Source of the DNA: Thermodesulfobacteriota bacterium
GTDB lineage: Bacteria; Desulfobacterota; Desulfobulbia; Desulfobulbales; JAGXFP01
NCBI GenBank assembly: GCA_039714535.1
Contig: JBDLJC010000004.1
Span: 5,693 to 69,692 of the forward strand
Reading direction: 5' to 3'
DNA: 64,000 nt
Under the pieces are notes generated by a model, which searched no databases, was not told the DNA's origin, and was given only the letters and a program-made list of their open reading frames with translations. Each line of letters begins with the position of its first letter. The first letter of the stretch is position 1. The position numbers and the translations under genes are program-made. Below are positions 8,717 through 39,420 of this stretch, one piece after another.

Positions 8717-8717
8717 C

Positions 8718-8825: not shown

Positions 8826-8847
8826 ACCCTGAATCCCTTGCTATCAT

Positions 8848-8893: not shown

Positions 8894-9227
8894 ACTTTGC
8901 AATTTTTCCCCATTACTGCCGAAAAGCCAGTTGGTTAAACAGTTTACAGGCAACCTCCACAACGCATTTCAAATCGGTAGTTACGACTATTAGATCTTTA
9001 TTGTGCTGTAATTATCACTACTTACAAAGCAGACCAACCGACCGGAGCACGACCTGAGAATTTTTTTCAGGTCGTGTTTCTGACTTAATATTTGGATTCA
9101 TAAATCCAGACTGTTCACCATTAACCAATCTGGGTTTATGCCTTCTTGGCAGAAGGCTATTTTTGTTGAAAGGCATCATTAATGTAGATCACGCTCTTGC
9201 TAAAACGTTGCAGATCTGCCCCCCTAA

Positions 9228-10883
9228 TTATGAATCAAGCTCTTGGGGATCCGCTAAAGACAATAATGCCGTCCGCAGATTGACTTTTTTATTTGCTATA
9301 CCGCTTTTCTTCCTGATGTGCTTCCGATGATTGCTGATCGTTTCCAGCGAAAGATTCATGCTCTCGGCGATATCTTTAGAGGTCATCCCGTCCTTGATCA
9401 TATTGGCCACCCGAATCTCAGTCGGAGTGTAGTTAAACTGATGAAGCGAGAGGCGATGCAAAAACGGGGACATAATATTGTTAAGATTTGTTTCAATGGT
9501 GCCCAGGTAGACCTCCTGCTCGCTAGTCATTTTACTTTTTTTCAGCTTCTCCAGATGGGGAGCAATAAGCATCTTGACATTGGCGAGCATCTGCTCTTCA
9601 AGCTCCTTTTTGTCCTGCGTCCTCTTTCTCAAGAGGACCGTCAGAGCAACATTGACCTGTTCGAGATTTTCGGTTTTCAGAGCCAGCTGTTGAGTGCGGC
9701 TTTCAACCAACTCCTCCATGTGTTCCGCAGCCGCAAGCAAACGCAGCTCTGCCTCCTTCTGCTTCGTTATATCGGTGTGGGTCCCCATAAAACGGAGAGG
9801 ATCTCCGTGTTCGTCTCTCTCCACCACCTGCCCCCTGGCCAGGATCCAACGCCACTCCCCCTCTTTGGTCCGCAGCCGGAACTCTGCTATATATCGCTTT
9901 GTCTCGCCCTGAAAATGTTCTTTAATCTGGGCCAGCGTCCTTTCTCGGTCTTCCGGATGCAGAAGATCTATAAATTTGATATTTTCCTGTTTCAGTTCGT
10001 CAAGGGTGTATCCCACAAGCCTGGCCCAGTTTTCACCGTAGACGGATTCCCCGGTCACCACATTGCGGTCCCACACCCCATCCGATGAGATATCCATGGC
10101 CAGATGCAGCCGCTCCTCACTCTTCTGCAAATGCTGCATAACCGCGTTGTATTCCGTCAGGTCTCTCATGGAGAGGACAACGGCTGAGACCCTGCCATCG
10201 GATTCAACAACCGGCGAGTACGAAAAGTGGTAAAATCGGGAGCCACCATCCTGTCTGGCAAATGAATCCTGATGCTGGCTTTTGGCGCCGCTGAAACAAT
10301 CAGTAAACGCCTTTTTCATTGTCCGATTATACAGATCCTTTCCGAAGATGTCGGAAAGCGACACGCTATGGATTTCCCCCGGATCGCACTGCATTACGCG
10401 TTCAAAGGAGCCGTTGATAAACAAAATTTTGCGCCCGGGACTGATTAAGGATACCAGATCGGTGCTCACGGCCAAGACCTCTTCCTGTACCCGCAATAAT
10501 CGCTCATGCCTTTTTTTCTCGAAACAATTGCCGATTCGAACCAAAAGTTTTTTGCTGTCAAACGGTTTCAAAAGATAATCGTCGGCACCGTGCCGTAATG
10601 CTTCAATATAGGTCAACACATCGGCATGACCGGTAATAATGATCACACCGACATGAGGCTGTTCGGCCTTAAACCTATTGAGAAGTTCAAGACCATCAAT
10701 ATCAGGAAGAACCATATCCAGGATGATAATACCAAAATATTGCTCCCGGAATTTCGCGAGCGCCTCCTCGCCATCCGCCGCCATTGTAACCGCATACCCC
10801 TCTGGCTCTATAATCTCTTTGAGTCCTTTGCGGATCACCTCATCATCATCAACCAATAAAACCAGATTATTATTCCTCATCAT
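9228..10883 (-). CDS. Response regulator REC-PAS-PAS-LuxR HTH
   Basis: LLVDDD..D..LPDIDG..IIITG..YLLKP receiver; PAS (LHPEDRER, WRWILARG, GTHTDIT); LuxR HTH (TPTEIRVA..TSKDIA..HRKHIRKK). Start moved to the ATGs after AGGAGG. Confidence 0.9.
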   Translation of the reverse strand: MMRNNNLVLLVDDDEVIRKGLKEIIEPEGYAVTMAADGEEALAKFREQYFGIIILDMVLPDIDGLELLNRFKAEQPHVGVIIITGHADVLTYIEALRHGADDYLLKPFDSKKLLVRIGNCFEKKRHERLLRVQEEVLAVSTDLVSLISPGRKILFINGSFERVMQCDPGEIHSVSLSDIFGKDLYNRTMKKAFTDCFSGAKSQHQDSFARQDGGSRFYHFSYSPVVESDGRVSAVVLSMRDLTEYNAVMQHLQKSEERLHLAMDISSDGVWDRNVVTGESVYGENWARLVGYTLDELKQENIKFIDLLHPEDRERTLAQIKEHFQGETKRYIAEFRLRTKEGEWRWILARGQVVERDEHGDPLRFMGTHTDITKQKEAELRLLAAAEHMEELVESRTQQLALKTENLEQVNVALTVLLRKRTQDKKELEEQMLANVKMLIAPHLEKLKKSKMTSEQEVYLGTIETNLNNIMSPFLHRLSLHQFNYTPTEIRVANMIKDGMTSKDIAESMNLSLETISNHRKHIRKKSGIANKKVNLRTALLSLADPQELDS

Positions 10884-15522: not shown

Positions 15523-16496
15523 AAGCATGGGGAGCGTCTGCCCCCCACACCACTCTCAGGCAATCAAATCCCAGACTCTTTTTTCCTCCTCTATAAAAAA
15601 CTCTTTTTCTGGAAACCGCGAAATTACGGCACCCGGAAAGGCGGGAGCAAGACAAAAAAATCCATCAAAATCCTTACAAGACAAACCTTTCAAAGAAAAA
15701 TTTGATCTCCTAAGCCCCTGTCTCGGAAGACGAGGGAACGCAGAAAAATATTTAAGAGAGGTAGACATAAAAGTGTAAGAAAATTTAGGGGGGGAAATGA
15801 CCAGAAGTATGAGAAAAGTTAAATAATCATCGACTATGGAAGTCTAAAAATATTAAGTATTGCTATGGGCCATCACAAAACCCAACATATTGCGATGGGT
15901 ACACTACTCGAAACAAAAACACTGGTCAAGAAATAAACCAAAAAAACCCCATTTTTTTACCATTTTCTTTTTTAGCCGTTTCTCCGCAGCTAAAAATATT
16001 ACTGCTGGCGGCGGCGCAAACACACCCAGAGCAGCCTTTTCCAACCAATCCCTTAAATCATGCCAGCCATTATATTCAATGGCAGGCCACCGGTAAAAAC
16101 CTGGAAAAACTTCGCCAAGCAAGTGAGCTGGTGTCTGTCCATCAATTATTATTTCAGTTCTTGACGTCGAGAGTGATAAAAAAGCACATTTATAGACAGA
16201 TGCAAACTGAGGACATTTCTTTCTGCGACAGGCGCTCGACTACCAGTCGCCGGTGCACACAACCCAAGCCCACCTGAATCTCCAACTTTCTCCTCCGGTA
16301 TTGGTCATAAACATTAACCATCTCCTAACCTTTTTTTACCTGTTGATAAACTGTATTTTCCCATCCATCATGGATAGAAAGAAGTTCAAAGTACATTTTG
16401 ACAAACTACAAGAGCAAGCCCTCTCTACCCCATTTTCTTGTTAGCGGCGCGGCCTGCATCGAGAATGGGCAAGATATTCATGATAGGAGGAAAAAA

Positions 16497-17222
16497 ATGA
16501 CCGAGTTGCAAATGTACAAAGAGGAGTACATGGAGAGTGAAAAAAAGACCCGAATCCATATTGTCGGCACACTTCAACTCCAGAACGAACTGTTCTCGCA
16601 AGCTCTTGCAAACGCGACGGGACTTCCCTGCACCTGTACGTCCCATGAACACCTGCCTTATCTGGTGGAAGAGACCAGCGTTAATAATTGTGTCATTCTT
16701 TGGGACTGCGTTGACGCGGAACAGGAAACCATATGGAATAAGATCGACTCAGGTCTTCCCCATGATGACTTCCAGTTCGCCCTCTTTAACGTAAGCCCTG
16801 AACAAAAAATTGAAACCCAGGCGGTCAAACGTGGTATCCGGGGAATTTTTTACCGGATGGACTCTCTGTCCGCATACAAGAAAGGAATCCAGGCAATTTT
16901 AAAAGGGCAACTCTGGGTCTCCCGGGGGATTCTGGAGAAATGTCTCGCGGAGACCGGAAAGTTCAACGAGGTGCTGGATGGAAAACAGATTCTGCTGACT
17001 TTCCGGGAGCGAGAGGTCCTCTTCATGATTGCGGCGGGTCTCAGCAAAGATGATATTGCCTACGATCTCGGCATCAGCCCCCATACCGTCAAGACCCACA
17101 CCCACAATATCTACCAGAAAATCAATGTGACAAGCCGCATCAAAGCTGCGCTCTGGGCAACACGGAACCTCAAATACCCGAAAAAGGTATACCTGGAAAC
17201 GAAAGGAAAGGATATTGGCTGA
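16497..17222 (+). CDS. CsgD/VpsT-like LuxR-family regulator
   Basis: Atypical REC domain, GIRGIFY, GIQAILKGQLWVSR, LTFREREVL..IA..L.ISPHTVKTH..NIY.KI HTH; RBS AGGAGG before ATG at 16497. Confidence 0.88.
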   Translation: MTELQMYKEEYMESEKKTRIHIVGTLQLQNELFSQALANATGLPCTCTSHEHLPYLVEETSVNNCVILWDCVDAEQETIWNKIDSGLPHDDFQFALFNVSPEQKIETQAVKRGIRGIFYRMDSLSAYKKGIQAILKGQLWVSRGILEKCLAETGKFNEVLDGKQILLTFREREVLFMIAAGLSKDDIAYDLGISPHTVKTHTHNIYQKINVTSRIKAALWATRNLKYPKKVYLETKGKDIG

Positions 17223-17465
17223 CCGACCTCTCTGCCGGTGACACTCGTAGGATTACACATCTCCGGCAGGGCTATTCTGATCTCTTTTGCATTACTGCCA
17301 ATACGCGGCGGAAAAGCGTAGAACAAAAAGCACAGTCCAACACCAGAAATGTTCTTACACCTTTTGGGGGAAAATAATCTAAGTAGTACACCAAATATAC
17401 AGCTGAATGGCGATTGATATCACTTGTCAGAATTTGATGTGATACAGGTAAAGGAGGAACAGCAA

Positions 17466-18233
17466 ATGACCACCAAACATCATGTCCTCATCATGAAAAG
17501 GGCTCAGGCCTGTGCGACGCTTTTCTTGCGCTTAGCACTACCGCTTACCTTCCTGCTACAGGCAGCCGCATGTGCATCCACCACCGCCGAATATAACGAG
17601 AAGCTGACCTCATCACTCACGGAACAGAGGGTAGTCCTACGACCAGGGGACGAAATAGAACTCAAATTCCCCTACTGGCAAGAACTCAATGACACCCAGG
17701 TTATCAGACCAGACGGTTTTATCACCCTCCAGCTCATTGATTCGGTCCAGACCAGGGGCCTTACTCCTGAGGAACTGGACGAGAAACTGACTAAGCTCTA
17801 TGAATCGAAAATCAAGGACCCGGTCATTTCCGTAGTGGTCCGCTCTCTGGTTGACCAGAGGATCTATGTCGGCGGTGAAGTCAATAAACCCGGCCTCCTG
17901 ACCCTTCAGGGAGAAGTTGATGTCCTCCAGGCAGTAATCAACGCGGGCGGCTTTAAAGAAACGGCCAAAACTGGCCATGTCATCGTCATCCGCAAGGACA
18001 AAGAGGGCAAGGCCATCCCATATGACGCCAATCTCTCCAGGGCCATATACGACGCAGACATGAAAGAGACTTTTCTCCTGCAGCCCAATGACGTGGTTTA
18101 TGTTCCCAAAACCGCTATCGCCAACATGAACAAGTTTGTGCAGCAGTATATCGCTGATCTGTTCCTGTTCAACGGCTGGGGGGTGGGTTTACACTATGAC
18201 CTGGACGACGCCACCAGAATAAACATAAATTGA
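17466..18233 (+). CDS. wza: Polysaccharide export lipoprotein (Wza/OPX, poly_export + SLBB)
   Basis: Lipobox AAAC, LRPGDEI, IRPDGFITL, YVGGEVNKPG, AGGF, LQPNDVVYVP. Confidence 0.9.
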   Translation: MTTKHHVLIMKRAQACATLFLRLALPLTFLLQAAACASTTAEYNEKLTSSLTEQRVVLRPGDEIELKFPYWQELNDTQVIRPDGFITLQLIDSVQTRGLTPEELDEKLTKLYESKIKDPVISVVVRSLVDQRIYVGGEVNKPGLLTLQGEVDVLQAVINAGGFKETAKTGHVIVIRKDKEGKAIPYDANLSRAIYDADMKETFLLQPNDVVYVPKTAIANMNKFVQQYIADLFLFNGWGVGLHYDLDDATRININ

Positions 18234-18279
18234 CAATCGCCGGCAGGCTTTCTTTTAAACTTAGTGCAAGAAAGAGGAA

Positions 18280-19881
18280 ATGAATATGCAGGCACAAGGC
18301 CCTCAATATTTTCCGGCTCCACATGTCACGGCAGCGAACAGTTCGCTGCGGGATATTCTCATTGTTCTGTTCCGTCGAAAAAAAGAGTTTCTCCTCTTCT
18401 CCGGGGCCATCTTTCTGAGCGTGCTCTTCTTCACGCACCTCTCCCCCGAAATCTACCAATCGGAAGCAAAGGTGCTCATCAGGGTAGGCCGCGAGAGCCT
18501 TTCCCTTGACCCCACCATTGACGGACCGACCATACCGCTTTCCCAAAGCAGGGAGAGCGAAGTCAATTCCGAGTTGGCAATAATCAAAAGCAGACTCCTG
18601 GCGGAACAGGTTGTCGACAGCATCACGCCGGCAGCCTTTCTGGCTGGAGGAGAGCCTGAGTCAGACAGCGACGCAAGCCCAAACTTTCTCCGCACAGCGG
18701 TAGCCATCGTTAAGAAAGCCTTAAAGAGCGGGGGTTACATTTCCGGAAAAGACGAGGACCAACTTTTTGATCCCCTGAGGGAAAAAGCGATCGCCAAAAT
18801 GATCAACAACCTCAAGGTGGCAGCGGGACAGAAGAGCAACGTCATCATAGTCTCTTTCGAGGCCCCGACCCCACAGTTTGGCCGGGAAGTGCTCAACACC
18901 TTTCTGACTCTCTATCAGGACCACCACATCCAGGTTCACAGCGCCCATGCCCCGCCCCAGTTTTTCCAGGATCAGGTCGACAACCTTTTCGTGAAACTGC
19001 AGGAAAAAGAGAATGCTCTTGAAACGTTCCGGACCACCCACAACATCGCGTCTATCGCTATCCAAAAGGAAACGCTCTTTGCCCAGATCAGCCGGGTCAA
19101 GAGCGAAATCGCAGAAATAAACAGCCAGATAGCCGCCTCCAAGGCCCACAATGACTCCCTGGAGCAAGGACTACAGAGCCGGTCCCGGGAAGTTGAACTG
19201 GGACGGGTTGCCGGCAAAAAGAGCAGTACCTCCGATACAATTGAAGCACGCCTGTTTGATTTCCGCATAAAAGAGGCGGATCTCTCAGCCCGCTACCCGG
19301 ACAACCACAGAGAGCTCATGGAAGTGCGCGAACAGATCAGATTGGCGGAGTCGGCACTGAGCAGCGAAAAACAGAGCGATGAAGTCAGAACCGGAATTGA
19401 CCCGACCTACCAGGCAATGCAGCTCGCCCTGGAGACGGGGCGCGCCCAGCTCCAGGCCCAAATCGCCCGCCGGAAAAAGCTTGAGGAAGGCCTCAAGACC
19501 CCGAAAACGGAACTTGCCGCCCTGATCAAGAACGAGCCGACCGAAGCGAGAATGAATCGTGATGTCAGCCTGCTGGAAGAGGAATATCTGCGGTACCGCC
19601 AGGACGTGCAGCGCACCAATATCTCCAGAGCCCTGGATCTCGGCAAGATATCCAACCTGAGCATCATTCAGCCGCCAACCATGCCTCTGAAACCGATAAA
19701 ACCGAAAAAGGCCCTCAACCTCGGTCTCGGCTTTTTCCTGGCCCTCTTTGGCGGAATCACCCTTGCATTTTTTCTTGAGTATCACGATGACTCGCTGAAA
19801 ACAAACGAGGACGTGGCAAAACATCTTGGTCTTCCCGTGCTGGCCTCAGTCCCCTTTGAGGAGTCCCGCCTATGTATGTAA
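18280..19881 (+). CDS. Polysaccharide co-polymerase / chain-length determinant (GumC/Wzc membrane part)
   Basis: Two TM helices flanking a coiled-coil periplasmic region; YPDNH, PIKPKK, LGLPVLASVP. Confidence 0.88.
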   Translation: MNMQAQGPQYFPAPHVTAANSSLRDILIVLFRRKKEFLLFSGAIFLSVLFFTHLSPEIYQSEAKVLIRVGRESLSLDPTIDGPTIPLSQSRESEVNSELAIIKSRLLAEQVVDSITPAAFLAGGEPESDSDASPNFLRTAVAIVKKALKSGGYISGKDEDQLFDPLREKAIAKMINNLKVAAGQKSNVIIVSFEAPTPQFGREVLNTFLTLYQDHHIQVHSAHAPPQFFQDQVDNLFVKLQEKENALETFRTTHNIASIAIQKETLFAQISRVKSEIAEINSQIAASKAHNDSLEQGLQSRSREVELGRVAGKKSSTSDTIEARLFDFRIKEADLSARYPDNHRELMEVREQIRLAESALSSEKQSDEVRTGIDPTYQAMQLALETGRAQLQAQIARRKKLEEGLKTPKTELAALIKNEPTEARMNRDVSLLEEEYLRYRQDVQRTNISRALDLGKISNLSIIQPPTMPLKPIKPKKALNLGLGFFLALFGGITLAFFLEYHDDSLKTNEDVAKHLGLPVLASVPFEESRLCM

Positions 19882-21179
19882 ACTTTTACAATATGAAAAA
19901 AGCCCCTTTCCACATCACGCCGGACCCGGAGTTTCTCTATCTGAGTCCGAGCCATAAAGAGGCATTAGGGGCAATCATATACTGCATCGAAAAGAGAAAG
20001 GGCTTTGTCTCCGTTTTTGGCGAGGTGGGGACCGGCAAAACCACCATTGTCCGGTCGTATCTGGCCAAAAGTGACAGAAACAGAATAAAGCCGATCTATT
20101 TGTTCAACCCATCCGTAACGTTTGCGGAACTCCTGAAGACTGTTTTTCAGGAACTGGGGGTAGAACCGCATAATGACAGTGTATACGACATGGTGCGGCA
20201 GTTGCACACACTTCTGATCAAGCAGTACAGACAAGGCCGTAACATCGTGCTGATCATTGACGAAGCACAGAACATGCCGGTCGCCACTTTTGAACAGTTG
20301 CGTATTTTATCGAACCTGGAGACACCAAAGGCAAAGCTTCTGCAGATCATTCTGGTCGGCCAGCCTGAGCTAGCCGAAAAGCTGGCCGGAAAAGAACTGA
20401 GGCAGCTCAATCAGCGCCTTGCCATTCGAGCAACATTATTACCCCTTTCAGCCAAGGAAAGTCTAGATTACGTCCTCTTTCGCCTGTCAAAAGTCACACC
20501 ATCGCCCCGCGACATTTTCACCACTGGAGCGCTCAAAAAAATCATAAAAGCGGCACAAGGGTTACCACGAATGCTCAACATCCTGTGCGACAATGCGCTC
20601 ATTGCGGGATTTGGCTACAAGGAAAAACGGATCACCGGCTCAATTGTCAAGCAGGTCATCGCTGATTTTGAAGGGAAAGGCCGCACGTCGTTTCTCACCT
20701 GGAAGTATGCCTCCCTATTTGGGGCTTTTCTGCTTTCTGTAACTGCCTTGCACGAGATGCATGCATTCCTTCCCTCTACCCAATACAGTTTAGGTCTAAT
20801 TGAACAACGACCTGCAACCAGCAGGCTGGCCCAGATTGAAACAAAAGCCTTGCGGGAGCAATTGCTTCCTGCCCCAGAGATAGACCGTTCGGAAAACGTG
20901 GTAGAGATATCGTCTGTGCCAGAGAAGGACCATGATAACTTCGTCGTCTCCCCCCACTCCCCGATAGAGATTAAACCCGGATCAATAACACGAACAGTCA
21001 AAAGAGGAGAATATCTCTCCCAGATTTGCCTTGACATGTACGGTTTTGTCAATGGCCAGATCATTCAAGCAGTCAAGGAGAAAAACCCCCGCATCTTTGA
21101 TGCCGATCTAATCTTTATCGGTGACACGATTTTTTTCCCCGAACTCTTAATAGCAGGAAGAAGACAGACGGATTCCTAA
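19872..21179 (+). CDS. ExeA/GspA-like AAA ATPase with TM helix and C-terminal LysM
   Basis: PFHITPDPEF, GEVGTGKTT, IIDEAQN, LSNLET, LVGQPEL; TVKRGEYLSQI...NP.I.D.DLI..G LysM. Confidence 0.88.
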   Translation: MYVNFYNMKKAPFHITPDPEFLYLSPSHKEALGAIIYCIEKRKGFVSVFGEVGTGKTTIVRSYLAKSDRNRIKPIYLFNPSVTFAELLKTVFQELGVEPHNDSVYDMVRQLHTLLIKQYRQGRNIVLIIDEAQNMPVATFEQLRILSNLETPKAKLLQIILVGQPELAEKLAGKELRQLNQRLAIRATLLPLSAKESLDYVLFRLSKVTPSPRDIFTTGALKKIIKAAQGLPRMLNILCDNALIAGFGYKEKRITGSIVKQVIADFEGKGRTSFLTWKYASLFGAFLLSVTALHEMHAFLPSTQYSLGLIEQRPATSRLAQIETKALREQLLPAPEIDRSENVVEISSVPEKDHDNFVVSPHSPIEIKPGSITRTVKRGEYLSQICLDMYGFVNGQIIQAVKEKNPRIFDADLIFIGDTIFFPELLIAGRRQTDS

Positions 21180-21193
21180 GGAAGGTAACAACG

Positions 21194-21973
21194 ATGACCA
21201 AAATTTTTGAAGCATTAGAGTCTGCTGGCCTTGAACAGTACAACCTGCGAAAAACAGAGGAAAGGGTTGTGCCCGTTGTGCCCTATCAGCAACGGGCTGC
21301 ATTAACCCCGGCACGGTACGCCGAAACAACTGTCACGCCTTCTACAGGGAAAGACGTAAGCACCGCAAGCAGCCTCTATCAGAGTATGGTTATGCTTCTT
21401 CCCGACAGGGAGAGCAGAATTGTGCAGTTCCAGGGAACCCAGCAAGGAGAAGGAACAAGCACTCTGGTACGTGAACTTGCCTGTCTTGCCGCCATAAAAC
21501 TGAAAAAAAAGGTTCTGCTGCTGGACATGAACCAGATGACGCCGAACCAATGCAGTTTCTTTCATGTCCAGTCCGAGTTGCCCCCGCTTGACGTATCACA
21601 CCAGGCAAGACTGACAAAGAAGGACTTTGCCAGAATTGACAAATCATCCCTCTATGTAACTCAACTGCCCGCCCGCGGCATTCCGGCCAGCATCATTTGC
21701 GAAATGCCCCAGATCGGTCCGCTGCTTGATGGTCTCAAAGAGGAATTTGAACTGGTCCTTATCGACTCGCCAGCAGCAATCAGCTGCTCCGAATATCTTC
21801 TGCTCTCCCCGAAAGTTGATGGGGTTGTTCTGGTGGTGCAGGCGGAGAAGACCCGCTGGCAGACGGTGGACAAGGTAAAAGAGCGCATTTTGGCCCAGGA
21901 TGGCAACATTCTGGGGGTTGTTCTAAATAAACGACGCTATCCGATACCCAACTTCATATACAAAAGGATCTAA
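21194..21973 (+). CDS. CpsD/CapB-type BY-kinase domain protein (degenerate Walker A)
   Basis: MTKIFEALE, GEGTST, VLLLD, VLIDSP, VDGVVLVV, LGVVLN. Confidence 0.85.
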   Translation: MTKIFEALESAGLEQYNLRKTEERVVPVVPYQQRAALTPARYAETTVTPSTGKDVSTASSLYQSMVMLLPDRESRIVQFQGTQQGEGTSTLVRELACLAAIKLKKKVLLLDMNQMTPNQCSFFHVQSELPPLDVSHQARLTKKDFARIDKSSLYVTQLPARGIPASIICEMPQIGPLLDGLKEEFELVLIDSPAAISCSEYLLLSPKVDGVVLVVQAEKTRWQTVDKVKERILAQDGNILGVVLNKRRYPIPNFIYKRI

Positions 21974-21988: not shown

Positions 21989-23179
21989 ATGTCTCTCTCC
22001 AGCATGTTCAAATGGTTTTATGCACCTGCAGCGCACGGACAAGAGAAGCGTACCGACAACATTTGCGGAGAAAAAGAATTTCTGCGCGTACTGGCACGGG
22101 AACGCGCCCGGGCAGAACGGAGCGCCCACCAGTTTTCCCTGATCGTCTTTGAAACCAGGTGCGGGAAACAGAGCAGCAATGTCCAAACCCATCTTCTGGA
22201 TGAGTTGTGCTCACGCATGCGGACAACGGACGAAGCCGGGTGGCTCCGGCAAAACCGGATCGGGGCCATCCTGCACAATGCCACTGCCCATAACGCCTGG
22301 AGTTTCGCCAAAGACATCCAGATGTCTTTGCTTTCCGACGACACCCAACTTCTCTGCAAAGTATACAGTTACCCGCCGCCGCAAAAAAACGATACCAAGA
22401 GTGATGGGAAAGCACCTGAAAAACAGGTGGCGGAGGCCAACGCTGGGCAGCAGTTCAACCGCGACTGTTCCATAGAAGAGTTGCAGCCGCACTACACCAA
22501 AAAAATAACCCGAAAGAAACGGTGCCTTGATCTTTTTGGCTCGCTGCTTGGCCTGATCATCCTTTCCCCGCTCTTTATGATTTTATGGTGTGTGATCAAA
22601 TCTGTCTCTCCGGGGCCGGCCATTTACAGGCAGACCAGAATCGGATTGGGAGGGAGACCATTTACCTTCCTGAAGTTCCGAACCATGGCAATCGACGCCG
22701 ACACTACCGATCATCGCAAGTATCTGTCCTCCTTGATCCAAGGGGAAGAAGGTCAGCAGAACTGCTCCCAGGCCATGATCAAGCTCGATGACAACAACTG
22801 CAACATAATATTATTCGGGAAATTGATTCGAAAAACCTATCTCGATGAGCTTCCCCAGTTGTTTAACGTGCTGCTGGGCGACATGAGTCTCATCGGCCCG
22901 CGGCCACCGATACCGTACGAAGTTGAAGAATACCAGCTCTGGCACACTAACCGTTTTGATACGACACCAGGAATGACCGGTCTGTGGCAGGTCAGCGGCA
23001 AAAACAGGCTTACTTTCGACCAGATGGTCCGATTGGACATCCAGTACATCCGCAAGCAGTCCTTCTGGATGGACCTCAAAATCTTGCTCATGACCCCCAT
23101 GGTCATAGCATCAGAACTCAAAAGAAGTCTGAACAAGATAGAACAACTAGGGATCGGGGCGAAAGAAATAAAGCTCTAG
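21989..23179 (+). CDS. Priming phosphoglycosyl transferase (Bac_transf) with N-terminal degenerate GGDEF domain
   Basis: KRCLD, SPGPAIYRQ.RIG, KFRTM, RKTYLDELPQLFNVLLGDMSLIGPRP, PGMTGLWQVSG; N-terminus FLRVLARERARAER..FSLIVF..RTTDEAGW. Confidence 0.9.
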   Translation: MSLSSMFKWFYAPAAHGQEKRTDNICGEKEFLRVLARERARAERSAHQFSLIVFETRCGKQSSNVQTHLLDELCSRMRTTDEAGWLRQNRIGAILHNATAHNAWSFAKDIQMSLLSDDTQLLCKVYSYPPPQKNDTKSDGKAPEKQVAEANAGQQFNRDCSIEELQPHYTKKITRKKRCLDLFGSLLGLIILSPLFMILWCVIKSVSPGPAIYRQTRIGLGGRPFTFLKFRTMAIDADTTDHRKYLSSLIQGEEGQQNCSQAMIKLDDNNCNIILFGKLIRKTYLDELPQLFNVLLGDMSLIGPRPPIPYEVEEYQLWHTNRFDTTPGMTGLWQVSGKNRLTFDQMVRLDIQYIRKQSFWMDLKILLMTPMVIASELKRSLNKIEQLGIGAKEIKL

Positions 23180-23287: not shown

Positions 23288-24313
23288 ATGACGGCACAAA
23301 AGATCAATATCGCTGTTGCAGGTTGCGGCTACTGGGGACCGAATATTATCCGCAGCTTTCATTCTCTGCCAAATTGTCATGTAAAAACGGTCTGCGACAT
23401 GGCAACAGAACGCCTAACCCACATCGGAAAACTATACCCGGGAACCAAAACAACATGCAGCTATGAAGAGTTATTGAAAGACAAGGACTTAGATGCCATC
23501 GCCATCGCCACACCGGTACGTTTTCACTATAAAATGGCCAAGGAAAGCCTGTTGGCCGGCAAACACACCTTCGTGGAAAAACCGATGGCCACAAGTGCAA
23601 AAGAGTGCGAAGAACTCATCCGGATTGCCAGAGAAAAGAAACTATCCCTCATGGTCGGCCATACCTTCGTCTACTCCGCGTCAGTCATGAAGATCAAGGA
23701 GATCGTAGAAGCCAGAGACCTTGGCGACGTTCTCTACATCAGCTCCCGCCGTTGCAACCTCGGCCTCTATCAGACGGACATCAATGTTGCCTGGGACCTG
23801 GCCCCCCACGACATCTCCATTATCCTCTACATCCTCAATCAGATGCCGATAAGTGTCAACTGCCAGGGCAAGGCCCATGTGAACAAAAAAATTGAAGATG
23901 TCACCAACATGACTTTGAACTACAGCAACGGCGGCTTCGCCACCATTCAAAGCAGCTGGCTTGACCCCAACAAGGTCAGGGAGATGACCTTTGTGGGCAG
24001 CAAGAGAATGCTTGTCTACAACGATCTCGAAGCCATGGAAAAAATAAAAATATATGACAAACGGGTCGAAACGCCGCCCCATTATGACACCTTTGCGGAT
24101 TTCCAGTACTCCTATCACTACGGTGATTCATACTGCCCTTATGTCAAACAGAAAGAACCCCTGCTCGTGGAAACAGCACACTTCCTCGACTGCATAAGCA
24201 ACGGCCACAAACCTTGTTCCTCGGGGAAAGAGGCCTTGGATGTTATTCAAATTCTCGAAGCTGCGTCCAAATCCCTTAAAAACGGGGGGGGGCAGATTTC
24301 TGTCGCTTCCTAG
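23288..24313 (+). CDS. Gfo/Idh/MocA oxidoreductase (WbpB/WlbA-like sugar 3-dehydrogenase)
   Basis: GCGYWG, ATP..H, VEKPM, WDLAPHD. Confidence 0.88.
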   Translation: MTAQKINIAVAGCGYWGPNIIRSFHSLPNCHVKTVCDMATERLTHIGKLYPGTKTTCSYEELLKDKDLDAIAIATPVRFHYKMAKESLLAGKHTFVEKPMATSAKECEELIRIAREKKLSLMVGHTFVYSASVMKIKEIVEARDLGDVLYISSRRCNLGLYQTDINVAWDLAPHDISIILYILNQMPISVNCQGKAHVNKKIEDVTNMTLNYSNGGFATIQSSWLDPNKVREMTFVGSKRMLVYNDLEAMEKIKIYDKRVETPPHYDTFADFQYSYHYGDSYCPYVKQKEPLLVETAHFLDCISNGHKPCSSGKEALDVIQILEAASKSLKNGGGQISVAS

Positions 24314-24325
24314 AGACACGATACC

Positions 24326-24820
24326 ATGCAAATAATATCATCTGATGTCCGCCTCGGCCATGACGTGAAAATCTCTGAGTTTGTCAATCTGTACGGCTGT
24401 GTGGTCGGCGACAAGACCAAAATCGGCCCATTTGTTGAGATTCAAAAAGGGGCGCGCATAGGCGCATCCTGCAAAATTTCGAGCCACACCTTTATTTGTG
24501 AAGGTGTGGCAATTGAAGACCGGGTCTGCGTCGGCCACAGCGTCACTTTCATTAACGACAAATACCCCCGTGCGACCACCAGGGATGGCCAGCTGCAAAC
24601 AGAAGCCGACTGGGTCTGCGAGACCATTCAGGTACAACAGGGGGCCTCCATCGGTTCCGGGGCGGTCCTGCTGGGAGGGATTACCATAGGAGAAAACGCG
24701 ATCGTCGGCGCGGGCAGCGTTGTCACAAAAGATGTGCCGAAAAACACTATTGTGGCCGGCAATCCAGCTCGAATTTTACAACAGGCAAAGGACAATGACG
24801 ATGAAAGTACCTCTTCTTGA
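24326..24820 (+). CDS. Hexapeptide-repeat N-acetyltransferase (WbpD/WlbB-like)
   Basis: EIQKGARIG..CKISSHTFICEGV, FINDKYPRA, VGAGSVVTKDVP..VAGNPAR. Confidence 0.88.
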   Translation: MQIISSDVRLGHDVKISEFVNLYGCVVGDKTKIGPFVEIQKGARIGASCKISSHTFICEGVAIEDRVCVGHSVTFINDKYPRATTRDGQLQTEADWVCETIQVQQGASIGSGAVLLGGITIGENAIVGAGSVVTKDVPKNTIVAGNPARILQQAKDNDDESTSS

Positions 24821-25904
24821 TCTGAAACACCAATACGAAATCATCCAAAAGGAAGCCCTCGCTGCGATTGCCAAAGTGCTGGACTCAACATCATTTGCAG
24901 GCGGCCCCTTTGTGGAACAGTTTGAAAAACATTTCGCCGAGTTTTGTCAATGCCGGTATGCCGTCGGGGTCGGCAGCGGCACCGACGCCCTCTGGATCGC
25001 CCTGCGTGGGCTTGGGGTCGGAAAGGGAGATGAGGTTATTACCGTGCCAAACTCCTTTATTGCCACCGCAGAGGCAATCAGCCAATGCGGGGCCGTCCCC
25101 GTTTTCGTGGACATCGATGAAAAAACATACACCTTGAACCCGGCCCTGCTGGAAGCCGCCATCACCTCTCGAACCAAGGCAATCATCCCGGTCCACCTGT
25201 ATGGTCAGATGGCCGATATGGATCCCATTATGAGCATTGCCGCAAAGCACGGCCTGCAGGTTATAGAAGATGCAGCCCAGGCGCATGGGGCCGAATATAA
25301 AGGCCGGAGGGCCGGGTCCCTGGGCCGGGCCGGGTGCTTCAGCTTCTATCCCGGTAAAAATCTCGGGGCATACGGCGAGGCCGGGGCGGTAGTCACCAAC
25401 GATGAGAAACTGGCCGAACAGATGCGAATCTTTCGCGACCACGGCCAGCAACACAAATACCATCACACCGTCATCGGCTGGAATTCCCGCATGGACGGCA
25501 TCCAGGGGGCCATTCTGGATGTCAAACTGAAACATCTGCCGCTCTGGAATGAGGCGCGCCGAAAAAATGCCGAACTCTACACTACTCTGCTCGCGGATAT
25601 GAAGGGGGCGGTCCTGCCCCATGAAGCGGAATATGCCAGACATGTCTATCACATCTACCCGGTCCGCCTGAAAAACCGGGACCAGGTCCTCTCCCAATTA
25701 GCTGAAAAGAGCATCTCCTGCGGAATCCATTATCCGGTGCCCATCCATTTGCAACAAGCATATTCCGGTATGGGCCAGGACAAAGGGCTATTTCCAGTGA
25801 CGGAAAAATATGCCCGAGAGCAGCTCTCACTCCCTATGTTCCCGGAGTTGACCGAGCAACAGATCAGCTACGTGGTAGAGGAGATGAAACAAGTTATCAA
25901 ATAA
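24801..25904 (+). CDS. DegT/DnrJ/EryC1/StrS aminotransferase (WbpE/WlbC-like)
   Basis: VPLLDL, SGTDAL, PVHLYGQ, EDAAQAHG, FSFYPGKNLGAYGE, NSRMD, IHYPVP. Confidence 0.92.
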   Translation: MKVPLLDLKHQYEIIQKEALAAIAKVLDSTSFAGGPFVEQFEKHFAEFCQCRYAVGVGSGTDALWIALRGLGVGKGDEVITVPNSFIATAEAISQCGAVPVFVDIDEKTYTLNPALLEAAITSRTKAIIPVHLYGQMADMDPIMSIAAKHGLQVIEDAAQAHGAEYKGRRAGSLGRAGCFSFYPGKNLGAYGEAGAVVTNDEKLAEQMRIFRDHGQQHKYHHTVIGWNSRMDGIQGAILDVKLKHLPLWNEARRKNAELYTTLLADMKGAVLPHEAEYARHVYHIYPVRLKNRDQVLSQLAEKSISCGIHYPVPIHLQQAYSGMGQDKGLFPVTEKYAREQLSLPMFPELTEQQISYVVEEMKQVIK

Positions 25905-29363: not shown

Positions 29364-30605
29364 GTGAAGATTTATATCGAAACAGATGGATGTTCACGAA
29401 GAATTAACGAGTTAACTTCTTTACACAAGTACTTTGAAGCTAATAATCACACCTTTGTAACTCGTCCCGAAAAGGCTGACTTTATTATTGTGGGCACATG
29501 CGCCTTTAAGAAAAAGGAGGAATCCGATTCCATTAAACGTGTCAGGTTTTTGAAAAGAATTAAGGCTAAACTCTTAGTTTATGGCTGCTTACCAGACATA
29601 GCCCCCACAAGATTTCATGAAGAGTTTAATGGTCTTGATTTCTTGGCCCCTAAGGATATTGAACGAATTGATTCATATTTTGAAGATAGTTTGATTAAAT
29701 TTCAAGATATTCAAAACCAAAATATTATTCCTGAAAGCATGAAATCAAACTCCCTTCAATCCGCTATCGGAAAATTTAAAGAAGAGTTTGAATTCTCTAA
29801 CAAATTCCTGGTAAAGGCGAAGGATTATGCGGGTAAAAAAATAAAGAGTTCCCTGAAGAGAAACGAAGAGAATTTTTATTTATTTATATGCAGAGGATGC
29901 CTTGGGAAATGTACCTACTGCGCTATAAAACGTGCAATTGGACCGCTAAAAAGCACTGATATTGGTGAAATTGTAGATCAATTTAATGAAGGAATTACTT
30001 TAGGGCACAAAACATTTACGATTCTTGGTGACGATGTGGGCGCCTACGGCAGGGAGCGGAATGACACGTTTCCCAATCTTTTGAGCCGTTTACTAGAGGA
30101 GTCAAATGGCCATAACAAATCATTAAAACCGCATAAAAATGGCATGATCGGTTTTCATATCGAAGAAATTCATCCGAAGTGGATGACACTCTATAAAAGG
30201 GAATTACACGAACTTATTTCTACACAAAGAATTAAAAGTATCCTCTGCCCCATTCAATCAGGAAACAACAGGATTCTGGAATTAATGAAAAGGGAACATG
30301 ACGCTGAAAGTATTTTTGAGGTTATGTCCAAAATTCGCTCCTCGCACCCTCAAATTAAACTTAGGACTCAGATTATTGTTGGCTTTCCTTCCGAAACGGA
30401 AAATGAGTTCTATGACACTTTGCACCAGGTTAACAATAATCTATTCGATGAGGTGACGGTTTTTCCATATGACCCTAAAGAAAAAACTCCAGCGAATTAT
30501 ATAGAGCCACACCTTGCAGACCAAGTGATATCCGAACGGGTTAATAAAGCCTTGAAATTTTTTAAGACCCATAAAATCAGTGCACATTTAAGCTGCCAGA
30601 ACTAA
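29364..30605 (+). CDS. Methylthiotransferase-like radical SAM enzyme (UPF0004 + radical SAM, no TRAM domain)
   Basis: N-terminal TDGC / GTCAF / YGCL Cys triad, CLGKCTYC radical-SAM motif, PIQSG..ILELMKR, IIVGFPSET; ends shortly after the barrel. Confidence 0.85.
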   Translation: MKIYIETDGCSRRINELTSLHKYFEANNHTFVTRPEKADFIIVGTCAFKKKEESDSIKRVRFLKRIKAKLLVYGCLPDIAPTRFHEEFNGLDFLAPKDIERIDSYFEDSLIKFQDIQNQNIIPESMKSNSLQSAIGKFKEEFEFSNKFLVKAKDYAGKKIKSSLKRNEENFYLFICRGCLGKCTYCAIKRAIGPLKSTDIGEIVDQFNEGITLGHKTFTILGDDVGAYGRERNDTFPNLLSRLLEESNGHNKSLKPHKNGMIGFHIEEIHPKWMTLYKRELHELISTQRIKSILCPIQSGNNRILELMKREHDAESIFEVMSKIRSSHPQIKLRTQIIVGFPSETENEFYDTLHQVNNNLFDEVTVFPYDPKEKTPANYIEPHLADQVISERVNKALKFFKTHKISAHLSCQN

Positions 30606-30693
30606 GCAAAAGGACGAAACTTACAAAGATTACAAGTTGCGCATAACACCATTCAAGCTCCATGTTGATATAGTGAGCGGGGTATATTGTCTC

Positions 30694-31581
30694 ATGTCAA
30701 TCAAAGAAAATATAAATAACCAGTTTGAGCACAAAGAAGGTATTGCTGCTTACTTTTCAACGCAGAAAGATGCCTGGCGGAAAAATTATGAATCGGATGT
30801 TTCCGGCAAAGTTAGCCTTTATAAAAGAGACATAATCAATAGAAAAAACACGGTACTGCATCTGCTCGATAAATATACTTATAAGGATTCTCTGGATATC
30901 CTAGATATCGGGTGCGGTGCCGGGATTCTAATGGAAGACATGTTGCAGAGAGGCCACAATGTTGTTGGTTCTGACATATCTGAAGAAATGATAGAGGAAG
31001 CCAAAAAGAATACGGCTGCTTTTTCCTCCGATAGAAAAAAAATTATGCCGGGAGATCTTGAGAATATTTCTTTTGGGAATAATACCTTTGATTTCGTCAC
31101 TTGCGTTGGTGTGTTGGAGTACCAAAAGAGCGACAAAACAAGTATTTGCGAAATAAGCAGAGTCCTTAACAATGGAGGTTTTGCTATTGTTACCGTCCCC
31201 AACCTATTAAGATTTAAAAATATTCTTGATCCGTATTACTACATTAAGCTAATTCCCAGGATTCTCAGGAAGACACGCTGGAGGGCCAAACCCAAGCATT
31301 CTGATCTGGTTAAGTCGTTTGAACACAATGAATATTTCACCAATAGAAAATTTTATTATGGACAGCTCAATCAGCTTTTTCGTTCATATAACCTGGAGAT
31401 AGTTGATTACGTGAGCATTGGCTACAGTCCACTATTAACGATATGGCGCAAAAGTATTCTGCCCAAGGCAATGGCCATCAAGGTTGGTAATTACCTGGAG
31501 AATAAATCTTCCTCTCAGCGTTCTTTCTTAAAATGGGTTCCTAACAGGTGGGTAATTTGCTTGAAAAAGACAACCGGTTGA
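30694..31581 (+). CDS. Class I SAM-dependent methyltransferase
   Basis: ILDIGCGAG, GSDISEEM, FDFV, EISRVL..GG. Confidence 0.9.
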   Translation: MSIKENINNQFEHKEGIAAYFSTQKDAWRKNYESDVSGKVSLYKRDIINRKNTVLHLLDKYTYKDSLDILDIGCGAGILMEDMLQRGHNVVGSDISEEMIEEAKKNTAAFSSDRKKIMPGDLENISFGNNTFDFVTCVGVLEYQKSDKTSICEISRVLNNGGFAIVTVPNLLRFKNILDPYYYIKLIPRILRKTRWRAKPKHSDLVKSFEHNEYFTNRKFYYGQLNQLFRSYNLEIVDYVSIGYSPLLTIWRKSILPKAMAIKVGNYLENKSSSQRSFLKWVPNRWVICLKKTTG

Positions 31582-32762
31582 TGCCGGCAATTATACTTAC
31601 AAGTCATACGATGGGGCTTGGGGTTATACGCTCTCTTGGAATCATGGGCGTACCTCTGTATGTCTTCTATTATGACAAGATAGACATGGGATATGTATCG
31701 AAATATGTAAAGGAAGCTATCCATTGCCCTCACCCGGAAAAGAATGAGAGTGAGTTTATAAAAGTTATTGTTGAATATGCGGAACAGTTGACGGGATCTC
31801 TGTTAATACCTGCTGATGATGCAACATTGTCGGTAGTTTCAAAAAACAAACCTACATTCGAAAAACATTATAAAGTTGCATGTCCTGGTTGGGAAACAAC
31901 CATCAAGTATATTGACAAAAAATACACATATGAGCTTGCCGATAAAATTGGAGTGCCATGCCCAAGAACCATTGTTCCCCAAAACATTGACGAAGTACAT
32001 AGTTACTCAAGAGATATTCAATACCCCTGTATTGTTAAACCTTGTGAAAGCCATAAATACTATGAGGTTTTCAAGAAAAAAATGACGATTGTTCATAATC
32101 AGGAAGAAATGGTCAGCGCTTATCAGGAAGCGACGCATGAAGGGATTGAAGTTATGATCCAGGAATATATTCCTGGCGGTGATTCAAACGGGGTTAATTA
32201 CAATTCACATATACATGAAGAAAAAACAGTAGTTGATTTTACGGCTGAAAAAGTTCGCTACTCTCCACCTGGGATCGGAGTACCACGTGTGGTTGTCTCA
32301 AAATATATACCTGAGGTCATTGATTCAGGCCGCAAGATTCTCAGAGCTATGGGCTACCATGGTTATTCTTGTACTGAATTTAAAAAGGATCCCCGGGACG
32401 GTATTTATAAATTAATGGAGATAAATGGACGTCATAATCGCTCGACTCTTCTTGCCGTCCGGTGCGGGATTAACTTTCCCTGGATTGAATATGCTCATTT
32501 CTTCGATAAGGAGATTAAATTTAACCATGACTGCAAGGATGGTATTTATTGGGTAGACGAGCTTCGGGACATTATTCACAGTATCAAATATTTCAAGGAA
32601 GAACGTTATAGTTTCAAACAGTACATTCGTCCATATATAAACCCCAATATATTTGCCATATTGGATGTAAAAGATATGAGACCTTTTTTTAAAAGAATAT
32701 GCGATTTAATTAAGATGGCAGTGAGTGTTGTTGCCCTCCGATCATCAAATATTAAGGAGTGA
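31581..32762 (+). CDS. ATP-grasp carboxylate-amine ligase (D-aspartate-ligase-like)
   Basis: GLGVIRSLG, LLIPADD, DK, PCIVKP, IQEYIPG, EFKKDPRDG..LMEINGR; TGATG coupling to the upstream gene. Confidence 0.85.
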   Translation: MPAIILTSHTMGLGVIRSLGIMGVPLYVFYYDKIDMGYVSKYVKEAIHCPHPEKNESEFIKVIVEYAEQLTGSLLIPADDATLSVVSKNKPTFEKHYKVACPGWETTIKYIDKKYTYELADKIGVPCPRTIVPQNIDEVHSYSRDIQYPCIVKPCESHKYYEVFKKKMTIVHNQEEMVSAYQEATHEGIEVMIQEYIPGGDSNGVNYNSHIHEEKTVVDFTAEKVRYSPPGIGVPRVVVSKYIPEVIDSGRKILRAMGYHGYSCTEFKKDPRDGIYKLMEINGRHNRSTLLAVRCGINFPWIEYAHFFDKEIKFNHDCKDGIYWVDELRDIIHSIKYFKEERYSFKQYIRPYINPNIFAILDVKDMRPFFKRICDLIKMAVSVVALRSSNIKE

Positions 32763-32766
32763 AGTC

Positions 32767-33552
32767 ATGAGAACTGATGCTATAGCGTTGGAGGAAAAGA
32801 GACTTGAAGAAGTGTCGACAGTCGACGATTACCAAGCTTTTCATGAGCGGCACCGCATTTTCCCTGAAATATTTGAGAATAGAAACCATAACAACATTTT
32901 AGACACATCTGCAGGGGTGGGCGTCCTAGGCAACAGAATAAAGCAAGCTTATGACGCAGAACTCTTATGCAATGATATCTGTCCAAAATGTTTAAAAACA
33001 ATGGAAAAGAGCGGTCTTAGCACACTATCATTTGATATAGATGATAAGGATAAACCGTTCCCTCTTGAAGACAAAAGTTTTGATGCCGTAATATCCTTGG
33101 CCACCATAGAGCATGTGATTCAGATTGATAATTACATGGAACAAATACACCGTATATTAAAAGATGACGGATATTTATACATATCCGCACCGAACTATAA
33201 CGGTCTAGCGTACTTAATTCCCATGTTGTTAACAGGGAAGACCTTTCATGATCCATTATCCGAACCGGACAGATATGAATTTTATGCTCATGTCCGCTAT
33301 TTTACACATCGGACACTTCTTGATTATGTCACTACATTCGGGTTTTCTCCCGAAGCAGTTTACCTTGCCCTACCCCAGGATAGTTCCCGTTATAAGAAAT
33401 TAAAGGGAAAATCGAAAGTTAAAGCAGCAATGTTCAGACACAGCATGAGACTGCTATATAGCGTTTCTCCAAGATGGGCGTCAGAACCGGTAATTTGTTT
33501 TAAAAAAGCCTCTGTATCATCAAGTGGCAAGCCCAGGAATATTATTCTGTAA
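32767..33552 (+). CDS. Class I SAM-dependent methyltransferase
   Basis: ILDTSAGVG, SFDAVISLATIEHV, RILK..G.L...PN, HVRYFT. Confidence 0.85.
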   Translation: MRTDAIALEEKRLEEVSTVDDYQAFHERHRIFPEIFENRNHNNILDTSAGVGVLGNRIKQAYDAELLCNDICPKCLKTMEKSGLSTLSFDIDDKDKPFPLEDKSFDAVISLATIEHVIQIDNYMEQIHRILKDDGYLYISAPNYNGLAYLIPMLLTGKTFHDPLSEPDRYEFYAHVRYFTHRTLLDYVTTFGFSPEAVYLALPQDSSRYKKLKGKSKVKAAMFRHSMRLLYSVSPRWASEPVICFKKASVSSSGKPRNIIL

Positions 33553-35361: not shown

Positions 35362-36534
35362 ATGTATAAGATGATAACAGGACATAATATCATATGTTTT
35401 GGTTCCTCCTCCTGGCAATATCCAGGTTTACAGCAAACAACCATGAGATTACTGGCGGACCAAAATAGAATCTTATATATCAACGCCCTCGGCAGCCGCA
35501 ATATTTCTTTGAAATTATCTCAGTGCAGCTTTTATTTAAGAAGAATTCAAAGACAGTTCCAACAAAATCAAACCATGTCAGAAAAAACCGTGGTTTGCAA
35601 TCCCCTGATCATCCCTTTTGTCTACCACTCTCTAACAACCAAATTTAACCGTTTACTACTCCGTGCTCAATTTCACCGTTTGCTGCCCAAGATAAATTTT
35701 CGCAAATACATATTATGGGTAGGCACACCAACGGCAGCCCCATTTCTCGATTTATTCGATCCTTCTTTAACTATTTATAATCCTGTTGATCGTTACCATG
35801 CCTTCTCGTTTGTCAATGGTGACAAAATTCGTGCTTACGAAAAGCGGATAGGGGCAAGGGCGGATGCAGTTATCTGTACATCTGATGCGATAAAAAATGA
35901 CATGTCTGCGTTCAACCAGCATGCCTTTGCTGTTACCCATGGCGTGGATGTAAATCATTTCCATTCCGCGCTGAACCAGGAGAACAAGATAGAGGATATA
36001 GACGATCTGCCTAAGCCTATAATCGGCTTTTTCGGTGGTCTTTCGGAAAGGGTCAACTATCAACTGATCCGAAAAATCGCATGCCGATATCCAACGGCAA
36101 GCATCGTACTGATTGGCAAGCAACTTTCCAGCCTGGCAGAATTGGAAGGCCTGCAGAATGTTCATGTCCTCGGATTTCGGGATTTCAGTTTGCTGCCCCA
36201 TTATATGAAACGCTTTTCAGTGTGCCTGATTCCCTATCACGTGAATAAACTTATGGAGGCGGTAGACCCTATAAAACTACGCGAATACCTTTGTCAGGGA
36301 AAACCGGTGGTCAGTGTCGATCTGCCGGAAGTCAGAAAACTTAAAGACCTGGTTTACATCGGCAGAGATGAGGAGGAGTTTGTCGAAATGGTGGGAAAAG
36401 CAATGGCTGAAAAAAGTCTCTCGCTTGCAGAGACCCGTATCAAGGCTGCCCGTCAAAGTGAATGGCCAGTGAAGATGGCAGAAATGGCAGAGATTGTTAA
36501 CGACGCTTTTATGCGAAAAAATCAGGAAAATTAG
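35362..36534 (+). CDS. GT4-type glycosyltransferase (TuaH-like)
   Basis: HGVD..HF, PIIGFFG, CLIPY, DPIKLREYL..GKPVVS. Confidence 0.85.
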   Translation: MYKMITGHNIICFGSSSWQYPGLQQTTMRLLADQNRILYINALGSRNISLKLSQCSFYLRRIQRQFQQNQTMSEKTVVCNPLIIPFVYHSLTTKFNRLLLRAQFHRLLPKINFRKYILWVGTPTAAPFLDLFDPSLTIYNPVDRYHAFSFVNGDKIRAYEKRIGARADAVICTSDAIKNDMSAFNQHAFAVTHGVDVNHFHSALNQENKIEDIDDLPKPIIGFFGGLSERVNYQLIRKIACRYPTASIVLIGKQLSSLAELEGLQNVHVLGFRDFSLLPHYMKRFSVCLIPYHVNKLMEAVDPIKLREYLCQGKPVVSVDLPEVRKLKDLVYIGRDEEEFVEMVGKAMAEKSLSLAETRIKAARQSEWPVKMAEMAEIVNDAFMRKNQEN

Positions 36535-36535
36535 A

Positions 36536-39387: not shown

Positions 39388-39420
39388 TAAATATCATAAT
39401 TGCAAGAGCAGGTTGAAAAA

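Follow-up and report, generated by a model that had tools for sequence, protein, structure and literature searches.

We analysed a window of 64,000 nucleotides from a Thermodesulfobacteriota bacterium (positions 5,693 to 69,692 of contig JBDLJC010000004.1, assembly GCA_039714535.1); all coordinates below refer to this window, and all of the genes discussed in it lie on the forward strand. The gene in question (21989-23179) encodes a protein of 396 amino acids in which a truncated GGDEF-like domain, here called mini-GGDEF, is joined through a linker to a small monotopic phosphoglycosyl transferase (PGT). In our judgement there is close to an even chance that this PGT is the initiating (priming) transferase of a Wzx/Wzy locus and carries a built-in sensor domain for cyclic di-GMP (c-di-GMP) that would gate it. 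The analysis shows that the domain has the fold of GGDEF domains and is homologous to them, that its active site has been lost and that its motif is conserved, and it establishes the fusion patterns and the type of locus; the identity of the ligand, its binding and its effect on activity are what we infer. c-di-GMP would be the obvious candidate ligand of the mini-GGDEF.

The profile comparisons and the predicted structure indicate that the N-terminal domain (residues ~24-130, ~105 amino acids; 22058-22378) is homologous to GGDEF domains and has the GGDEF/nucleotidyl-cyclase fold. A profile built from the N-terminus of the PGT and 63 stand-alone members of its family (64 sequences) was searched against the PDB with HMMER, and it matched the solved GGDEF domains 3ign (E 7e-12), 5euh (3.1e-9), the WspR entries (~1e-8) and PleD (0.07). 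When the same profile was compared by hhalign with seven GGDEF domains of the same genome, the probability was 97.3% and the E value 1.9e-11 over 112 columns. A hidden Markov model (HMM) made from the genome's own GGDEF domains always lands on the mini-GGDEF module in the family proteins, and PF00990 is met directly by 21 of the 150 proteins in our family sample at E<=0.01 (best 1.1e-9), the sample consisting of the query and 149 of its 150 best matches. The AlphaFold2 (AF2) model obtained from the 64 sequences (predicted local distance difference test score, pLDDT, 86.1; predicted template modelling score, pTM, 0.78) has the topology alpha0(28-45)-beta(49-56)-alpha(62-76)-beta(82-86)-beta(90-96)-alpha(100-117)-beta(121-128). 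With this model, Foldseek returned 29 matches at E<=0.001, those listed being GGDEF domains, with 6khu first (TM-score 0.70/0.75), and VIA returned Z scores of 14.3 (6khu), 13.0 (3ign) and at least 10.2, with only GGDEF-domain entries among the 50 matches listed. The GGDEF fold that a first-pass annotation of this DNA had assigned to the N-terminus was thus borne out by the model, and its description as a GGDEF domain holds for homology and fold, although the domain is truncated and not full-length.

The query alone might suggest another explanation, namely that the resemblance to GGDEF arose by chance and that the N-terminus is an unrelated extension. Residues 1-176 gave no Pfam match, including to PF00990, even at E<=10, and phmmer found no sequence match to the query in the PDB at E<=10, so the GGDEF resemblance is visible only at the level of profiles or of the fold. 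We rejected this explanation as extremely improbable, given the profile E values of 7e-12 and 1.9e-11, the PF00990 matches within the family, the landing of the own-genome HMM on the same domain and the Z score of 14.3.

Relative to canonical GGDEF domains, the N-terminal domain is clearly shortened. In both the HMMER and the hhalign alignments there is a deletion of 9-10 residues where canonical GGDEFs carry FKxxNDxxGHxxGD; hhalign places a 9-column gap opposite 'DSFGHPFGD', and its alignment runs from column 5 to column 134 of the 158 in the template. The domain lacks both the alpha1-alpha2 segment, which binds GTP, and the C-terminal third (the alpha4-beta5 part), and R87-Q-N-R-I91 (22247-22261) stands in place of GG[D/E]EF, the active-site motif being lost. 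The earlier call of a degenerate GGDEF motif, with RQNRI at its position, was therefore correct. Because the GG[D/E]EF motif, the alpha1-alpha2 segment and the C-terminal third have all been lost, the domain cannot act as a cyclase; it is a truncated, catalytically dead descendant of GGDEF domains. A separate candidate, Y126-x-Y128-P as a target of a bacterial tyrosine kinase (BY-kinase), was set aside; it lies in the last beta strand, aligns with the canonical '..A.FP' and is more likely structural.

The inhibitory-site (I-site) motif RxxD has been retained. Codons 22220-22231 encode R78-T79-T80-D81, which is followed by EAGWL and then by R87-Q88-N89-R90-I91, and the codons and the alignment register show that the first-pass annotation had both the coordinates and the RxxD-x5-GGDEF spacing right. 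The RxxD column of the family (RstD in the profile) aligns on the I-site RxxD of 3ign, 5euh, WspR and the GGDEF domains of the same genome, and the pentapeptide five residues past RxxD aligns on GG[D/E]EF with both HMMER and hhalign. Judged from composition, a protein as long as this one should contain about one RxxD by chance alone; the RxxD of the N-terminal domain is more than chance because its register matches the GGDEF I-site in the profile alignments. Two residues upstream lies a family-specific arginine, so that the segment reads R76-M-R78-T-T-D81 (22214-22231). The alpha0 region reads L35-A-R37-E38-R-A-R41-A-E-R44-SAHQ-F49-S50-L51, with its charged residues E38, R41 and R44 encoded at 22100-22120. 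The helix that had been described as preceding the motif is therefore present, but its spacing had been miscounted, as four residues and not three separate R44 from F49. In the alignments, R41 and R44 fall on arginines in helix alpha0 of WspR and of the own-genome GGDEFs; the canonical alpha0 arginines include the secondary I-site arginine, PleD R313, to which we take R41 to correspond.

To count conservation, we used 161 domain copies from 150 proteins, from which 15 close homologues (P0002-P0016) were left out against redundancy. E38 and D81 are kept in all 161 copies, R78 and G84 in 160, R44 in 157, A103 in 156, L95 in 155, R41 in 154, W85 in 151, R76 and Y128 in 150 each, and P129 in 145. 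The 64-sequence domain alignment has four invariant columns in all, E38, R41, R78 and D81. In addition, a word-indexed search with residues 1-175 retrieved 16 close homologues (377-427 amino acids, all with PF02397), and R76, R78 and D81 are invariant in 16/16 of them. The expected conservation of RxxD across homologues was thus found both among close relatives and in the wider family, and the motif is retained alike in the fused, tandem, stand-alone and PilZ-linked forms of the module. The GGDEF-equivalent columns, however, are variable: D occurs at position 1 in 96/161 copies, no residue exceeds 30/161 at positions 2-3, and positions 4 and 5 have R in 60/161 and I in 96/161. With RxxD near-invariant while these columns vary, selection, which has been very strong on RxxD and the alpha0 arginines, must act on the face that carries the I-site rather than on the active site that was lost.

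The family is large and its architectures are varied. Searched exhaustively with HMMER against 1.84 billion cluster representatives, residues 1-140 yielded 842 matches at E<=1e-3, each a cluster at 50% identity, and 130 at E<=1e-10. Bac_transf is carried by 47 of the 150 proteins in the sample, always with the module N-terminal to the transferase, while stand-alone module proteins of 106-175 amino acids make up 63 of the 149 matches. Tandem modules (2-3 copies) occur in 10 proteins (P0017-P0021, P0023, P0026, P0033, P0037 and P0056), with RxxD in every copy; the three-copy protein P0021 comes from metagenome-assembled genomes (MAGs) of Desulfobulbaceae and is named 'sugar transferase'. PilZ is fused to the module in 4/150 proteins, one of which also has a receiver domain (receiver-module-PilZ), and as PilZ is a c-di-GMP-binding domain, these fusions put the module into c-di-GMP signalling architectures. 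Family members are named 'sugar transferase' or 'hypothetical protein' in their sources; two of the 16 close homologues, from Desulfurivibrionaceae or 'Proteobacteria' MAGs, are named sugar transferases by NCBI, while the nearest protein-atlas clusters are named 'hypothetical protein', their commonest phyla being Fibrobacterota, Thermodesulfobacteriota, Planctomycetota and Bacillota.

In the source genome, the profile found one copy of the module, the PGT itself, together with weak cross-matches to two true GGDEF proteins. About nine open reading frames (ORFs) of this genome have GGDEF domains above the Pfam cut-off, and therefore c-di-GMP is presumably made. A scan of the phylum at E<=1e-8 matched 227 of 301 genomes, mostly through ordinary GGDEF domains, and is uninformative on the module. 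Whole-domain matches at E<1e-22 were found in 8 of 300 other genomes (G202, G068, G232, G197, G141, G167, G029 and G289). One of these, G202, has at least six module matches at E<1e-24 over several contigs, three of them with in-frame stops in the surrounding open frame. We examined three module copies that are truly stand-alone, and one of them has a Wzz/BY-kinase gene in its neighbourhood, together with genes for a receiver protein and a Crp-type regulator.

Of the readings considered, these observations best support the following scenario for the gating of the PGT by c-di-GMP. A cytoplasmic mini-GGDEF, reduced to its I-site face, would be tethered by a disordered linker to the monotopic PGT. 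c-di-GMP, probably as an intercalated dimer, would bind R78 and D81 with help from R76 and/or R41 and R44, and binding would alter the association of the N-terminal domains with each other or with the catalytic domain. The altered association would then switch the transfer of sugar-1-phosphate to undecaprenyl phosphate. More generally, the mini-GGDEF might be a dedicated second-messenger receptor, one to three fused copies of which would let c-di-GMP switch Wzx/Wzy pathways at the first membrane step, with the stand-alone and PilZ-linked forms acting in trans; to this wider proposal we give somewhat less than an even chance. A complex prediction with two N-terminal domains (residues 22-134) and two c-di-GMP molecules scored 0.36, against a mark of 0.42 and a best control of 0.29, and weighs neither way on dimerisation or binding.

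Several findings weigh against a c-di-GMP sensor. First, the query alone does not reach the gathering cut-off of PF00990. Second, the third I-site arginine is missing: the column 18 residues past the GGDEF position is D109 in the PGT, and across the 161 copies it holds D in 72, N in 16, S in 13, E in 11, R in 10 and K in 9. In the profile-PDB alignments 3ign has Arg and WspR has Lys in this column, which we take to be that of the third primary I-site arginine, PleD R390 or PelD R402. Of the 'intact I-site' described in the first-pass annotation, RxxD is therefore kept but the third arginine is not; as a speculation, R76, two residues before R78, might make up for it. Third, E38, G84, W85 and Y128-P129 are equally conserved yet are not known I-site residues, and the conserved charges could be structural salt bridges or a protein interface. 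Fourth, the geometry of the pocket may differ in so truncated a fold. Fifth, the PilZ fusions can also be read as cases in which PilZ, and not the module, senses the messenger. Finally, two of the four stand-alone copies examined, both among the truly stand-alone ones, have no polysaccharide genes within ~8 kb.

Some of these points would fit a different role, in which the mini-GGDEF is a ligand-independent interaction or oligomerisation module that would hold PGT molecules together as dimers or attach the PGT to the Wzz/BY-kinase or ATPase machinery. The domain would then be a fossil of a cyclase domain, its conserved Arg, Asp and Glu serving as structural salt bridges or as a protein-protein interface. 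The missing third arginine and the family-specific invariant residues outside the known I-site (E38, G84 and W85) favour such a role, and the occurrence of 2-3 copies in tandem hints that packing between domains is important. A BY-kinase-like gene lies directly upstream of the PGT with conserved synteny, and there is a precedent in the EpsW~P-EpsZ pair, in which a PGT is controlled by protein contact and dimerisation (PMC12802240). However, the near-absolute conservation of the R and D of RxxD in all contexts is explained more easily by a common small ligand than by differing partners. Moreover, RxxD is not usually retained in degenerate GGDEF domains whose binding of c-di-GMP has been lost, which we also count against this role. 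On balance an interaction module is possible but on the unlikely side.

A sensor of some other ligand, such as another cyclic dinucleotide, (p)ppGpp, GTP or a nucleotide sugar, bound through R41, R44, R76, R78, D81 and W85, would account for a pocket unlike the canonical I-site, with R76 in addition and an acidic side chain where R390 would stand, and for the conserved G84-W85 toward the former active-site end of beta2. Nevertheless, the GTP-binding elements of GGDEF are deleted, nothing points to any specific alternative, and the co-occurrence with PilZ points to c-di-GMP networks. We therefore regard another ligand as improbable.

The ORF starts with ATG, with GGAGG 7-11 nucleotides upstream, and 16 nucleotides separate the stop of the preceding gene from the PGT start. 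Residues 1-23 (21989-22057) contain a short helix predicted at residues 3-10 with low confidence (pLDDT 53-57); a start of the form M-S/x-L-x-x-hydrophobic-x-K (21989-22018) is a recurrent feature of the family proteins, whether fused or stand-alone. The mini-GGDEF is followed by a linker of ~40 residues (~131-170; 22379-22498), which is poorly conserved in the alignment of the 16 close homologues and predicted to be disordered (pLDDT 25-40 in the full-length AF2 model). That model, built from 16 sequences (pLDDT 58.9, pTM 0.42), was used for secondary structure only, and it predicts a long membrane-associated helix at residues 175-206. The catalytic domain (22499-23128) contains Bac_transf (PF02397), the sole Pfam domain of the protein (residues 177-373, E 3.6e-59, 199.7 bits against a cut-off of 27). 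D286-E287 (22844-22849) and P194 are invariant in 16/16 close homologues; in the PGT signature, the Asp-Glu pair forms the catalytic dyad and the proline lies within the re-entrant helix. The protein can thus be assigned by sequence to the small monotopic PGT family (PglC type), and its catalytic signature is intact. All 10 matches to the NCBIfam PGT models (WbaP, WcaJ, EpsZ and TIGR03013, the XrtA/PEP-CTERM PGT) fell under the curated cut-offs, for example TIGR03025 (241.5 against 295.55), and they were confined to the catalytic C-terminal part.

The surrounding genes identify the locus as one for a Wzx/Wzy-type exopolysaccharide, since it contains Wzy_C, Polysacc_synt, Wza and Wzz/GNVR proteins, and the setting proposed in the first-pass annotation therefore stands. 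Directly upstream of the PGT, Pfam matches mark a Wza-like exporter, a Wzz/GNVR chain-length protein, an AAA ATPase and a BY-kinase-like protein (17424-21973). The ATPase (19872-21179) scores 253 bits with TIGR03015, below the cut-off of 324.5, and ~165 of its C-terminal residues lie outside the Pfam and NCBIfam matches. Downstream follow, by Pfam and by synteny with loci L048-L051, a Gfo/Idh/MocA oxidoreductase, a hexapeptide acetyltransferase and a DegT aminotransferase (23288-25904), a cassette for the modification of sugar nucleotides that resembles the WbpB/WbpD/WbpE route to 2,3-diacetamido sugars. By analogy with it, the donor of the PGT is probably a sugar of the 2,3-diacetamido type. 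Further downstream are a FemAB-like protein, glycosyltransferases, a Wzy_C-type polymerase/ligase and a Polysacc_synt (Wzx-type) flippase (36494-39387), and, at the end of the locus beside the flippase, a sulfotransferase (39400-40374; Sulfotransfer_3, 3.7e-30), so the polymer may be sulfated. Also within the locus (29364-33552) lie a radical SAM/UPF0004 (MiaB-like) protein, two methyltransferases and an ATP-grasp protein; ATP-grasp and FemAB homologues accompany the PGT in G029 (L051) as well. The best matches of the neighbours (exporter, chain-length protein, ATPase, Tyr-kinase and FemAB) are to NCBIfam models of the XrtA/PEP-CTERM type, all below their cut-offs.

Six fused loci from other genomes of the phylum were compared with that of the window, and four of them (G068, G232, G141 and G029) have the same succession of genes, namely exporter - chain-length/kinase - mini-GGDEF-PGT - oxidoreductase - acetyltransferase - aminotransferase, the G029 locus without a Wzz match. 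Of the other two, that of G202 has only the PGT, and L053 (G167) has its match at the end of the contig, with neither the N-terminal domain nor the PGT among the ORFs found. In G197 (L044, 8683-9952), next to a Wza-like gene, a module ORF (8683-9192) and a transferase ORF (9062-9952) share a strand but overlap in different frames, which points to a gene that is split or frameshifted or to a mistake in the assembly. At the head of the locus in the window lies a LuxR-family regulator like CsgD/VpsT (16398-17222; GerE 2.9e-19), which also matches VpsT-like_REC (7e-5) and the CsgD model (3.9e-26), both below cut-off. It contains W-V-S-R, which we take to be one residue off the VpsT c-di-GMP motif W[F/L/M][T/S]R. 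Its position and motif suggest possible transcriptional control of the same locus by c-di-GMP.

Direct control of polysaccharide enzymes by c-di-GMP is well established for synthase-dependent systems. If our proposal is true, this direct post-translational control would be extended to Wzx/Wzy systems, and a messenger sensor fused to the initiating PGT would give a simple explanation of how undecaprenyl phosphate and nucleotide sugars are rationed among pathways. Post-translational regulation of Wzx/Wzy pathways is described as incompletely understood in a paper of 2025 (PMC12802240). The module is common and unannotated, so defining the mini-GGDEF would improve the annotation of many polysaccharide loci. 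Even if it does not bind c-di-GMP, it would be a clear case of a cyclase domain cut to a core of ~105 residues and reused as an accessory domain.

Among known systems, PelD of the Pseudomonas aeruginosa Pel system (PDB 4dmz/4etz) is likewise a dead GGDEF-type domain that has kept RxxD and is tied to polysaccharide biosynthesis, and its chains were among the Foldseek matches (ranks 33 and 44, E 1.5e-3 and 2.2e-3). PelD forms a membrane protein of its own, which includes a GAF domain and serves a synthase-dependent pathway. The mini-GGDEF, in contrast, is shorter, has no third I-site Arg, is fused to an enzyme and lies in a Wzx/Wzy locus. Ligand binding by PelD has been proven, whereas the mini-GGDEF is likened to it from motif and predicted fold. 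Because the third Arg, the GAF and transmembrane context and the synthase pathway are absent, the mini-GGDEF is not a member of the PelD group. Its best relatives by sequence and structure are the product-inhibited diguanylate cyclases PleD, WspR and the Marinobacter domain 3ign, whose I-site holds c-di-GMP. Their RxxD has the same register as that of the mini-GGDEF, and the arginines of alpha0 line up as well; these are active cyclases with GG[D/E]EF, the alpha1-alpha2 GTP site and a domain of ~160 amino acids, none of which the mini-GGDEF has. The closest solved structure is 6khu, a 131-residue 'DGC protein' of Thermotoga maritima (Z 14.3, root-mean-square deviation 2.4 over 113 residues), for which a literature search found no paper. 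It is similarly short, profile positions 23-131 corresponding to chain 4-115 with nearly no length difference, but sequence identity is just 14-16%.

Small monotopic PGTs of the PglC type and their fusions were reportedly surveyed by O'Toole, Imperiali and Allen in PNAS in 2021. As the N-terminal domain has no Pfam match, a Pfam-based survey of PGTs would probably leave it unannotated. In our literature search, judged mostly by titles and abstracts, no report turned up of a PGT with a GGDEF-type domain or of a PGT on which c-di-GMP acts, though the 2021 survey of PGT fusions may list one. PMC12802240, which cites that survey, notes that regulatory domains such as receivers can occur on small monotopic PGTs, and it describes PGT regulation by other routes, namely EpsW~P acting on EpsZ and tyrosine phosphorylation of CapM. 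The first-pass annotation knew of no description of gating at the first step of a Wzx/Wzy pathway; regulation at the PGT step as such has already been described, and only the c-di-GMP/GGDEF route to the PGT is possibly new. The nearest parallel in Wzx/Wzy pathways is the EpsW~P-EpsZ pair of Myxococcus xanthus, in which post-translational control is also exerted at the initiating PGT (PMC12802240). There, a separate phosphorylated receiver promotes the dimerisation of a large monotopic PGT, whereas here a fused GGDEF-derived domain with a presumed nucleotide input would act on a small one.

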